A DNA stretch of 64,000 bases from Dictyostelium discoideum (Eukaryota), in assembly GCA_000004695.1 (NCBI GenBank), contig CM000150.2, forward strand, positions 4,800,001 through 4,864,000, given 5' to 3'. The notes under the pieces were generated by a model. It saw nothing but the letters and a program-made list of their open reading frames with translations, made no database searches and was not told the origin of the DNA. A program made the translations under genes and the position numbers. Each line of letters opens with the position of its first letter. The stretch's first letter is position 1. Shown in pieces: positions 11,940-18,335 of the stretch.

Positions 11940-14900
11940 TTATCTTCTTTTGAAATAAGGTTTTCTTCCCCATTGGTTGTGTTGATCATATTCATCTGGA
12001 AGAGTTGGCGAGTTTCCGGACCTATTTTGGTTATAGTTTGGTCCCCTTTGATTACCATAAAAATTGTTATTATTATTATTATTATTGTTATTAGTATTAT
12101 TATTATTTGTATTATTAGTATTATTTATATTGCTATTTAAGTTATTGTTATTATTACTATATTTAAAGCTTGAAGGTGAATCTAATAGTTGTGGTGATTT
12201 ATTTGATGAAGGTGTTGGAGGGTTTGATTTATTGGTACCGCTAGTATTTGTTTGAGAAGTTGATGAGGAAGATGAAGTCGAAGAAGTTGAAGAAGTTGAT
12301 GGTTGTTGTGATTGTGATTGTTGTGATGGTAATGGTTCATTTCCATCCATATCATAGTCATCATTATGATAGGAAGAGAGTGGTGGCGAAGGAAAACCAT
12401 TTCTTGGGTAGTTTGGTCTTCTATCCCAACCACTTTTATCAACGTTTCTATCATATGGAATTCTATTTTTATCGTTGTTATATCTTAAACTATTATCCCA
12501 ACCACTCTTTCTGTGTGGGCTATCCCAATGATCATCTTTGAATCTTCCTCCATAACGATTTCCTCCTCCTCCTCCTCTATCGCCAGAGAATTGATCTCTG
12601 TCATTGTATGAATTCCAATTGTCACCTCTTCTATCCCAATCCCTTGGTTCTCTAACTTGATCTCTTGGATCTCCTCTTAATGGCAAGTCGCGATTATCTC
12701 TGTTTTCTCTTAATGATCCCATATCACCACTTCTTTCACGATTTAAACGATATGGTTGATCGATTGGATCCCTAAATCCACCTATTGAAGATGATAACCC
12801 ACCTTTCATTGATGGTGATTGATTTGGTGATTGTGATGGTGTATAACTATTTCTTAATTCCCTTTCATGTGGATAACCAGAGGATGATTTAGATAAAGTT
12901 TGTTGATCAGAGTGATGATGATGATGTGGAGATGGTGGTGGTGGTGGTTGACTTGGTGGTGGTGGTGGTGGTTGATTTGGTGGTGGTGGTGGAGGTTGAT
13001 CATTCAATTTATTGTTTATACTGCCACTACTATTGTTGTTGATATTGTTGCTATTATTTGTATTATTTGGTGAGTTGGTTTGGTTATTTGTATTATTTGA
13101 TTCATCATTTGGTAATGAACCTTCCTCTTCTTGATGTCCATCACTATCATCAGCTCTTCTTTCTTCTTCTTTAATACATGGTAAGTCTTTTTCCTTTTGC
13201 TTGAATTCGGCTAACCATGCTTTCTTTCCAAATTTAGATTTATTTCCTTCATCATCTGGTGGAGATGATAATGATGCCGAGATTGGGGCAGATGTTGGAG
13301 TGGTTGGTGTTTTTTCATTCATCTCTATATCTTCATTTTCATCTGATGGAGATGAATCGGTTGGTTTCTTTTTCTTTGTAGATTTTGGTGAAACATTACC
13401 ATTGCTATTAGATGTAGTTGATGTGGTTGGTGATGATTGTTGAGTAGTTGAGATTGTTGTTGTTGATAGTAATGATGGTGATGTATCAGTTGAACTACTA
13501 TTACTATTACTTGTATTATTACTATTTTTTCTATTATTTTTTTCTTTTTCTTTTTTCTCTAATTGTTCGAAATTCTGAATGATTTGTTGTAATTTTCTAT
13601 CCTCTCTAGAGGTTTTATCAGAAGGTGTATTGAAAAAAATGGAATCCATTTCCAATGATGACATTTTACCTTTTCTTTTCTTCTTTTGGGTTGGTGTCGC
13701 CATATTTGTTGTTGATGTTTCTTCTTTAATATTTTTTTCTACATTATTTTCTTCATTTTCGTTATTATTATCAAAATTATCATCATTTTCAATTATTTGT
13801 CCTTCTTGTTTTACCTGTTGCTGTTGTTGTAATTCTTGTTGTGATTCTTGTTGTTGTTGATGTTGTAATTGTTGTGGTGGTTGTTGTTGTTGTTGTTGTT
13901 GTTGTTGTTGTTGTTGTTGTTGTTGTTGTTGTTGTTGTTGTTGTTGTTGTTGTAATTGTAGTTGTTGTTGTTTTTGTTGTTGTTGTAATTCTTGTTTTAT
14001 TTGTTGTTGATATAATTCTGTGCATTCTAATGATCTTTTCTTTAATTCTGGATCTACAGTTTCACCTAACATTTCTAACATTTTAATTCCAAATGAAGCT
14101 CTTTCATTAAACCAAATCGAGACAGAACATGTTGAGGTTCCACAGGCACAATAGATCCTATTCTTTAAACATTTATAGGGATAGTCAAAATCGATAGTTA
14201 TCTCTTGATTCTTTTCTATTTGACTTAAACTAAAAATTGAAACTTTTAAATTATTTTTATTATTATTATTATTATTATTATTATTATTATTATTATTATT
14301 ATTATTATTATTATTATTATTATTATTTATATTTATATTTATATTACTAAATTGAAATTTTGAATTTGGTAAACATGATCTTCTTATAAATTTACAAACG
14401 GAACCAGATCTAGCGTCTATACAGAGATCTCTTTCCTTTGGGTTATATGTGTTTTTTAAATATGAAGTATTATTGAATGATTGATAGGTTGAATTAAACA
14501 TAAGGATTTGTGGATTGATTGTATTGAGTAAGAATCCATTTGAATCAACCCATTCATTCTTTATATCAATGATTTGATTTTTGAATATACCTGTACATTC
14601 ACCAATGAATGTATTTTCATTTTGACCTAATTTTGATAATATAATTTTTTGTGGTTGTTCTGATGAAATTTGTTGTGGTTGAGATTGTTGTTGTTGTGGT
14701 GGTTTTTGATGTTGATGTTGTTGTTCAATTGTTGTGGTTGTTGTGGTTGTAGTTGTGGTGTTATTATTATTATTGTTATTATTATTTGATGATTCTTTTT
14801 TAATAATTAAAGGTTTTGAGGTGGTATTATTATTATTACTATTATTATTTGATAATTCTTTTTTAATAAGTAAAGGTCTTGAATTTAATCTACCAAATAT

Positions 14901-17900: not shown

Positions 17901-18335
17901 TATTATACCACCATGAATTGGTGTATTTGGTTTGGATGTTAATGTTGTAGTTGGTTGTTTTGGAGAATTTAATGGTATAGATGTTGAAGTATTGTTTGAT
18001 GATATGTTATTTACTGTTGTTGTATTGATTGATGATGATGACGACGATGATGACGACGATGATGATGTTGTGGTAGTGGTGGTGGTTGTTGTTGTTGTTG
18101 ATGCAGTTACTGTTGTGTTTGTTGTAGAAGTGGTAGATGTAGGTGTCTCTGATTTAAGTGAACCAAATAAATTTGTAAAGTCCAACTGTTTAAAAAGTGT
18201 AGAAGGTGGAGGCTCTGTTTTAACTGAACTTATATCAATGCTAGTACTAGAAATTACTGGAGATTCTAATATATTCTTTGGTAATGCCCTTCTAGCTACA
18301 GATTTTCTACTACTCTTTTTATTTTCTTCACTCAT
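11940..18335 (-). CDS. PHD-finger plus SET-domain protein, about 2104 aa, Set3/MLL5-like and probably a catalytically inactive SET. Exons 15450..18335 and 11940..15368.
   Basis: ORF 15417..18335 encodes two C4HC3 PHD fingers (CICNNNIDQGLMVQCETCDKWQHSICYG...CEQC and CTCGKKECLVGKIIQCLSCHNWSHLSCV...CHTC). It ends in QFI followed by GTAAGT. An 81-nt intron with acceptor TTATAATTAG joins it in phase 0 to the upstream extension of ORF 11940..15200. That part contains a SET domain (GECTGIFKNQIIDIKNEWV...DARSGSVCKFIRRSCLPNS...QEITIDFDYPY...CACGTSTC post-SET). It also has a poly-Asn tract of about 56, poly-Ser of about 33, poly-His, long (EK)n and poly-Q tracts, and a G/R/D-rich C-terminus. Confidence 0.8.
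15868..15958. repeat. (GAT)n microsatellite of about 30 units, giving poly-Ser in the PHD-SET protein on the minus strand.
   Basis: A perfect trinucleotide run. Confidence 0.95.
17376..17521. repeat. (TTG)n microsatellite of about 48 units, translated on the minus strand as a poly-Asn tract of the PHD-SET protein.
   Basis: A perfect trinucleotide run, visible directly. Confidence 0.95.

Follow-up and report, generated by a model that had tools for sequence, protein, structure and literature searches.

Two long neighbouring open reading frames (ORFs) occupy positions 11940 to 18335 of a 64,000-nt stretch of the Dictyostelium discoideum genome (assembly GCA_000004695.1, contig CM000150.2, positions 4,800,001 to 4,864,000; hereafter the window). 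The locus raises three questions: whether the ORFs form a single gene, to which protein family the product belongs and whether its SET domain could still methylate lysine. Our answer is that the locus is probably a two-exon gene for a nuclear chromatin protein of 2104 amino acids (aa), a dictyostelid orthologue of Set3, KMT2E, SETD5 and UpSET that would act by the mechanism proposed below. The Set3/MLL5 family is already well known, as are its dead SET domain and its function as reader and scaffold, and the gene described here is a previously unstudied member.

An earlier note made from the letters of the window (the sequence-only reading) had joined ORFs at 15417..18335 and 11940..15200 through a canonical 81-nt intron into a protein of about 2100 aa. 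Both ORFs are present on the minus strand (972 and 1086 aa, respectively), and the length of the intron, its donor and the residues on either side of it were all given correctly. On the donor side, the codons AAA AGT CAA TTT ATT end at 15450 and are followed from 15449 by GTAAGT, in phase 0 after codon 962; on the acceptor side, ...TTATAATTAG is followed from 15368 by GAT GAT TAT TGT. Spliced in this way, the coding sequence is 6315 nt long and specifies 2104 aa, with no internal stop and one terminal TAA. Of 35 nearby GT..AG pairs that would preserve the frame, this is the only one to combine a GTAAGT donor with retention of every orthologue-conserved residue; the other 34 were rejected for the loss of conserved residues or the lack of a consensus donor. 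The intron also holds AACTAAC, which contains an ACTAAC branch-point-like site about 30 nt from the acceptor, and its GC content is 7.4%, compared with 23–27% in the adjoining exons. The window as a whole is ~22% GC with ORFs rich in polyasparagine (polyN) and polyglutamine (polyQ), a composition typical of a Dictyostelium-type genome. At this base composition stops make up ~9% of random codons, and the probability of finding ~960 open codons is near 1e-41 (a composition-based estimate).

Further evidence on the splice comes from related species. Using the SET region as a query, an exhaustive HMMER search over 1.84 billion representatives turned up four dictyostelid orthologues, one each in Cavenderia fasciculata, Tieghemostelium lacteum, Synstelium polycarpum and Acytostelium subglobosum. 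All four are continuous across the junction, each giving a single BLASTP high-scoring segment pair (HSP) over aa 885–1044 with a gapless block at the junction, which reads RFQFV-DDYCKRN in T. lacteum and REMIS-DDYCKRK in Cavenderia. In the annotated T. lacteum gene a single intron of 63 nt (GTATGT...TACTAAT...TAG, phase 0) is located at the homologous codon boundary, and a divergent mitofilin gene lies directly upstream in both the window and T. lacteum (L001 490..2409). Because the intron boundary and the mitofilin neighbour are the same in both genomes, we regard the window gene as the positional orthologue of the T. lacteum gene, with a conserved intron. The window protein shares seven collinear conserved blocks with its orthologues (BLASTP), and its N-terminus (MSEENKKSSRKSVARRALPKNILE) and C-terminus (...RKPYFKRR) both match those of the dictyostelid proteins. 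On these alignments, the two ORFs are almost certainly one spliced gene, as the sequence-only reading had proposed.

The family assignment was examined through solved structures, profiles and fold. In a single-sequence search of solved structures, the SET domain matched human MLL5 (5HT6) best, with FIRRSCxPN in both proteins, and MLL1 was close behind. A profile built from five dictyostelid sequences only, as a guard against circularity, scored 5HT6 at 72.7 bits (E = 2.9e-19) compared with 43.3 bits (3.1e-10) for the next SET domain, that of KMT2D. With a 19-sequence family profile the scores were 134.6 bits for 5HT6 and 94.7 for the next match, and the ASH1L SET lay 40 bits under MLL5. Foldseek searches with the AlphaFold2 (AF2) model placed two 5HT6 chains first (TM scores of 0.77 and 0.73 on the target) and MLL1 narrowly behind, and all top matches from the PDB were SET domains. 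Among the significant HMMER matches, about 30 of 40 have RRSC or a closely similar sequence (RKSC, HRSC or RRTC); the remainder comprises three canonical Set1-like sequences and polyN noise. Among the matches that have names are a protein of a tick, called 'inactive histone-lysine N-methyltransferase 2E-like', and sea-urchin and trematode SET proteins. A Set3/MLL5-type PHD finger is also present N-terminal to the SET domain, and its best match is the PHD finger of Set3 itself. The earlier placement in a Set3/MLL5-like clade is thus matched by sequence, profiles and fold, and together they make membership in the Set3/KMT2E (MLL5)/SETD5/UpSET subfamily very probable.

Whether the SET domain could be catalytic was judged from the four signatures of active SET domains, which were defined together with their MLL5 replacements in the MLL5 structure paper (PMC5094779). 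The domain lies in the centre of the protein (aa ~1202–1397 of 2104, with ~700 residues beyond it) and not at the C-terminus, where the sequence-only reading had put it; the Pfam model PF00856 was detected after removing a polyN insert from the SET sequence. When the SET domain was aligned to 18 relatives and, for comparison, to three canonical SETs of the Set1 type, all four signatures proved to be replaced. At the xGxG site, the canonical HGYG (also HGWG or HSYG) reads QKII, compared with NKKI in MLL5. The tyrosine of EY.GE, kept in MLL5 as Tyr358, is a cysteine (GECTG); at this position T. lacteum also has Cys, Cavenderia has Phe, and Synstelium and Acytostelium have Tyr. The NH site, canonically NHSC (NHCC, DHSC or NHSC in the Set1-like SETs aligned), is RRSC, corresponding to R408-R409 of MLL5 in RFIRRSCTPNA, and KFIRRSCLPNS (aa 1288–1298) indeed stands in place of NHSCxPN. 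Finally, the ELTYDY site reads EITIDF, where the aligned MLL1 and MLL5 sequences are ELTYDYKF and EITIAFDF. The presence of I and F at both ELxYDY tyrosines, as with I444 and F446 of MLL5, favours the non-catalytic interpretation, and an intact NH motif elsewhere in the domain is excluded because the SET domain has no histidine at all.

What the SET domain retains is the RRSC cysteine, the post-SET-type CxCx4C and the following helix (WFNERASFGIKMLEMLG), which is invariant in parts across dictyostelids and predicted with a local distance difference test score (pLDDT) >90. The mean pLDDT of the AF2 model is 77.8, SET-domain identity to the orthologues is 38–51%, and 30 columns are invariant across the five dictyostelids. 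Retention of such features would be expected if the fold is preserved for a structural or binding role. Given the loss of all four signatures and the behaviour of MLL5, Set3 and UpSET, the domain is in our judgement quite likely to be catalytically dead. In MLL5 itself, the Asn-to-Arg change was blamed for lost binding of S-adenosylmethionine (SAM), and no activity was found (PMC5094779).

The SET fold also contains a pure (AAT)23 tract, which the sequence-only reading had missed. It lies in the hairpin loop between RRSCxPN and the strand preceding EITIDF, where the pLDDT of the model is low. N-rich inserts occur in the same loop in Cavenderia fasciculata and in the fungus Cunninghamella blakesleeana, and insertions seem to have recurred and been tolerated at this site.

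The two PHD fingers noted earlier were confirmed by Pfam (PHD, two stretches, E = 6e-14). For PHD finger 1, the best match in the PDB was the yeast Set3 PHD finger 5TDR (E = 2.7e-14, gapless over 59 residues), and the MLL5 PHD finger 4L58 matched at E = 6e-9. The residues that form the K4me pocket of the MLL5 finger have been described (PMC3793974); when PHD1 was mapped onto human MLL5, the equivalents of W141, M132 and D128 were kept, and those of T119 and H127 were both Ile. Judged from these conserved PHD1 residues only, it is rather likely that the protein reads methylated lysine 4 of histone H3 (H3K4me). A tandem second PHD finger is also found in the dictyostelid orthologues, in Physarum (P0015) and in unnamed protist sequences (P0011 and P0023/P0036).

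Two short motifs after the SET domain, M1 (SREDRK...) and M2 (KKxWL), extend the resemblance. M1 is shared with T. lacteum, Physarum (SREQRKLQALVKTFEKLEHREKRK), sea urchin and the tick KMT2E-like protein (MTREERKIDAIMRAFEKMERTEKRR). M2 takes the form KKAWL in Amoebozoa, CKKIWAKNF in Cunninghamella and AKKRWLRQA in animal KMT2E-like proteins; among the amoebae it was seen in T. lacteum, Synstelium and Acytostelium and not in Cavenderia or Physarum. Both motifs also occur in two invertebrate KMT2E-like relatives, P0019 and P0029, and in Amoebozoa and animals alike the SET domain is followed first by M1 and then by M2. On this alignment evidence, M1 and M2 are further shared derived characters of the family. 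SETD5 joins a mammalian SET3-like complex of NCoR, TBLR1, HDAC3 and ANKRD11 through the motif PLKKWKS, and W834C abolishes this (2026, PMC13385800). We considered M2 as the counterpart of that TBLR1-binding motif and kept the idea as a hypothesis only, as the spacing differs (KK-x-W compared with KK-W).

Several other explanations of the locus were weighed against this account. Resemblance to catalytic SET proteins leaves room for an origin in a diverged Set1/MLL or ASH1-type family instead of true Set3/KMT2E orthology: the MLL1 and ASH1L SETs come near the MLL5 score in the single-sequence search, ASH1L PHD fingers are among the good PHD matches, and the CxCx4C aligns with the MLL1 post-SET. 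Set1/MLL proteins (KMT2A-D, SETD1; MLL1-4) do have the SET fold, the cysteine of (N/R)(H/R)SC and the CxCx4C in common with the window protein. However, canonical members carry xGxG, EY.GE, NHSC and ELTYDY and end just past the post-SET, whereas the window protein has none of the four and continues for ~700 residues. Likewise, ASH1-type proteins have an AWS-SET-postSET unit in which NHSC is intact, and bromo, PHD and BAH domains come after it, whereas here the PHD fingers precede an RRSC-bearing SET domain, an order found in Set3/MLL5, and Pfam detected no AWS, N-SET, bromo or BAH domain. With the profiles setting MLL5 29–40 bits above all others, the derived RR, I and F common to MLL5, and M1 and M2 also found in animal KMT2E-like proteins, we regard such an origin as very improbable. 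We also give little credence to the idea that the SET domain still methylates lysine by means of unusual cofactor binding, as some groups claim for SETD5. The fold, the CxCx4C and the RRSC cysteine are conserved and the invariant columns suggest constraint, which would suit an enzyme, but every catalytic signature is replaced, the substitution linked to lost SAM binding and inactivity in MLL5 is present, even the tyrosine that MLL5 retains is gone, and the domain lacks histidine.

Two further alternatives concern the integrity of the gene. Its very long homopolymer tracts, one of them within the SET fold, and the loss of all catalytic residues could be read as decay under relaxed selection. 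Yet all 2104 codons remain open where about one random codon in eleven would be a stop, the collinear blocks are common to the orthologues, the same substitutions are fixed in Amoebozoa, fungi and animals, and both folded domains (SET and middle) are confidently predicted, so that decay is extremely unlikely. It is just as hard to believe that the ORFs are separate genes, one for a PHD protein and one for a SET protein, with a coincidental GT...AG pair between them. Either ORF is long by itself and the splice is known from sequence only; nevertheless, conservation reaches the donor and resumes immediately past the acceptor, the orthologues are unbroken at the junction with the T. lacteum model intron at the same codon boundary, and the 81 nt between are GC-poor with consensus splice signals. 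In addition, the conserved part of the second ORF starts upstream of that ORF's first listed start codon.

For the single Set3/KMT2E-like gene that we favour, the following mechanism is proposed. The Set3-type PHD finger, possibly aided by the adjacent second finger, would dock the protein on K4-methylated H3 tails. The SET domain would be a pseudo-enzyme that has kept its fold and post-SET cysteine cluster while its SAM-binding and lysine-positioning elements were replaced, and it would serve as a structural or interaction module instead of a methyltransferase. The SREDRK... and KKxWL motifs, together with a lineage-specific helical domain, may recruit partner proteins. Judging from yeast Set3C and the mammalian SETD5/NCoR/HDAC3 assembly, the likeliest partner is a corepressor complex with histone-deacetylase activity, and this complex would temper acetylation at transcribed, H3K4-methylated genes. 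The analyses themselves establish how the gene is built, which domains it encodes, where it belongs among SET families and which residues are substituted; nuclear location, H3K4me binding, lack of activity and deacetylase recruitment are what we infer by analogy with known family members. For recruitment of a deacetylase corepressor complex in particular, family analogy and motif conservation suggest roughly an even chance.

The best-known members of the family show both what this protein shares with them and what it adds. Set3 of Saccharomyces cerevisiae belongs to the deacetylase complex Set3C, together with Hos2, Hst1, Snt1, Sif2 and Hos4. Like the window protein, it has a PHD finger N-terminal to a SET domain without the xGxG, Y and NH signatures (PMC5094779), a comparison made through the published description and not by direct alignment. 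The window protein differs in having a second PHD finger, a helical middle domain, a long C-terminal region, large repeats and 2104 aa. Human KMT2E (MLL5; 5HT6, 4L58/2LV9) shares FIRRSCxPN, I and F for the ELxYDY tyrosines, and the PHD residues W141, M132 and D128. In contrast, it has Tyr358 in EY.G where the window protein has Cys, a single PHD finger, and no equivalent of the 23-residue polyN insert that the window protein carries in the SET hairpin loop. Human SETD5 belongs to the same SET subfamily as MLL5 (PMC5094779) and lacks a PHD finger, whereas the window protein has two; SETD5 PLKKWKS and window GKKAWL are both basic-tryptophan motifs, compared from the published SETD5 motif only.

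A number of observations weigh against this interpretation or parts of it. Neither Set3 nor MLL5 has anything equivalent to the middle domain, the second PHD finger or the C-terminal region, and extra or different functions are possible. The T. lacteum intron model that agrees with our splice is itself a prediction. H3K36me3 activity has been claimed for SETD5 (review, PMC9982096), and 'inactive' is the majority view of the family and not a settled one. A separate PLKKR motif in animal KMT2E-like proteins aligns better with the SETD5 motif than M2 does, and the sequence link between M2 and a TBL1/Sif2-type partner is weak. The window protein lacks the HCF-1-binding motif [DE]HxY, and so do all dictyostelid orthologues but one: in Acytostelium, EHPY close to the C-terminus fits the pattern but is not shared by the other proteins. 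The motif does occur as DHNY or DHSY in sea urchin, tick and trematode relatives (DHNY in P0019, P0029 and the trematode proteins); it is a feature of animal members and not of yeast Set3, and it is not family-defining. Finally, a literature search yielded no paper on a Dictyostelium homologue of Set3, MLL5 or SETD5.

The assignment turns an uninformative label into a testable function, that of a predicted H3K4me-reading, non-catalytic SET scaffold. Among the orthologues, XP_004361179 and KYR02506 are publicly named 'PHD zinc finger-containing protein', 'hypothetical protein' is the other name in use, and these names mention neither a SET domain nor a relationship to Set3/KMT2E. The family's range would grow from fungi and animals (PMC5094779) to Amoebozoa, and a haploid, tractable amoeba with apparently a single family member at the locus could be used to probe the role of a dead SET domain and of a deacetylase-recruiting motif. 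A bolder reading, which we consider doubtful but worth stating, is that Amoebozoa carry an elaborated Set3/KMT2E reader-scaffold. It would combine tandem PHD fingers with a lineage-specific helical domain, which ends in three homeodomain-like helices, and with a SET pseudo-enzyme from which all three active-site tyrosines have been lost, and its conserved KKxWL would be an ancestral dock for a TBL1/Sif2-type WD40 subunit. If true, a Set3C/NCoR-like deacetylase complex would predate the divergence of Amoebozoa from Opisthokonta and would be genetically tractable in Dictyostelium development.

The coordinates of the main features are collected in Table 1.

Table 1 Features of the PHD-SET gene and its upstream neighbour (positions are those of the window; aa numbers are those of the encoded protein)
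Feature	Position	Strand	Details
PHD-SET gene	11940..18335	minus	ATG at 18335, TAA at 11942..11940; 2 exons; 2104-aa product
Exon 1	15450..18335	minus	962 codons; ends ...KSQFI, phase 0
Intron	15369..15449	minus	81 nt; GTAAGT...AACTAACC...TAG; 7.4% GC; retention leads to a stop after 10 codons
Exon 2	11940..15368	minus	1142 codons + TAA; starts DDYCKRK
PolyN tract	17352..17522	minus	aa 272-328, 57 residues: 50 AAC + 7 AAT
(EK/DK)n tract	17139..17264	minus	aa 358-399, inside a larger imperfect GAAAAA-type array, 16727..17265
PHD finger 1	16416..16550	minus	aa 596-640; Pfam PHD/PHD_5; Set3/MLL5 type
PHD finger 2	16263..16400	minus	aa 646-691, directly after PHD1; best solved match PHF13 PHD finger
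Basic bipartite motif KKRKSTSTGPNNRRKK	16116..16163	minus	aa 725-740; read from sequence
PolyS tract	15867..15956	minus	aa 794-823, 30 residues: 29 TCA + 1 TCT
All-alpha middle domain	15105..15680	minus	aa ~886-1050; split by the intron
SET domain, post-SET cysteines and following helix	14064..14651	minus	aa ~1202-1397; PF00856 E = 1.6e-8
FIRRSCLPN	14364..14390	minus	aa 1289-1297; RR for SAM-binding NH
(AAT)23 polyN insert	14259..14327	minus	aa 1310-1332, pure; SET-fold hairpin loop after RRSCxPN
EITIDFDY	14181..14204	minus	aa 1351-1358; I and F for two ELxYDY catalytic tyrosines
Post-SET-type CxCx4C, CACGTSTC	14127..14150	minus	aa 1369-1376; aligns with MLL1/Set1 post-SET cysteines
Motif M1 SREDRKLQQIIQNFEQLEKKEK (SREDRK...)	13545..13610	minus	aa 1549-1570
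Motif M2 FGKKAWLAEF (KKxWL)	13203..13232	minus	aa 1675-1684; W1680
R/D/W/G-rich C-terminal region	12330..12848	minus	aa 1803-1975; HSPs to P0002 and P0004 (BLASTP)
Mitofilin (MIC60)	19722..21704	plus	660-aa single ORF; Pfam PF09731 E = 4.8e-138

Further elements lie outside the SET domain and PHD fingers. The motif RKSVARRALPKNILE lies close to the N-terminus and is kept in orthologues, and the linker that follows (aa ~60–590) is rich in repeats, including N57, (EK)n and H9. The basic bipartite motif is kept as K[KR]RK-x8-RRKK in P0001, P0003 and P0004 and is a likely nuclear localisation signal. The middle domain is modelled by AF2 with a pLDDT of 82.6; hhalign gave no match between it and the tick KMT2E-like protein, and Foldseek found no match to its model in the PDB. 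The R/D/W/G-rich region (for example, GWDRRPNYPRNGFPSPPL) is shared with T. lacteum and Acytostelium and is dictyostelid-specific, and Pfam returned no match for aa 1803–1975.

The sequence-only reading had also described extreme homopolymeric tracts encoded by pure, in-frame microsatellites, which was partly correct. All tracts are in frame, and the H9 and EK tracts are as described; the other lengths are N57 and S30, for which about 56 and about 33 had been given. Purity holds, completely or nearly, for N23 (AAT), S30 (29 TCA) and a Q24 tract at aa 1435–1458 (pure CAA) but not for N57, H9 (5 CAT + 4 CAC) or the imperfect EK array. The long runs of N, S, Q, T, H and EK come from the in-frame triplet repeats that are ordinary in this AT-rich genome, and they are located in linkers or surface loops. 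Such tracts are commonplace in Dictyostelium genomes and are not special to the PHD-SET gene. Directly before the start codon lies an imperfect CATA/CACA-type repeat (18343..18399; Tandem Repeats Finder period 10, 5.5 copies), presumed to be within the 5' untranslated region or promoter.

The order of domains (N-terminal RKSIARRALPKNILE, tandem PHD fingers, middle domain, RRSC SET and WFNERA helix) is the same in the dictyostelid and Physarum orthologues, namely XP_004361179 (Cavenderia), KYR02506 (T. lacteum), XP_012754414 (Acytostelium), the Synstelium polycarpum protein and Physarum polycephalum transcript 01046, with HRSC instead of RRSC in Cavenderia. The window protein is the longest, at 2104 aa compared with 980–1704, because of repeat expansion. 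The exact 2104-aa product had no match in a collection of 15 billion proteins, word-indexed protein searches with a 519-aa region and with the SET domain as queries gave no match, and a profile search of proteins returned only unnamed metagenome fragments. In a protein collection clustered at 90% identity, the sea-urchin MLL5-like protein P0019 groups with pyruvate dehydrogenase E1-beta proteins. A gene model of 2308 aa that is a fusion (P0054) probably links them, and the grouping is an artefact of the database without biological meaning.

No tRNA genes were found in the 64,000-nt window. An ORF of 402 aa on the plus strand (10031..11239) is a full-length match to the DUF4419 model (E = 1.6e-92) and is convergent with the PHD-SET gene, whose 3' end it faces. 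On the minus strand, a 1023-aa ORF (2064..5135) has a partial, weak match to Pfam Pkinase (E = 3e-9, profile positions 90–193) and may be a divergent kinase or pseudo-kinase, or part of a multi-exon gene.

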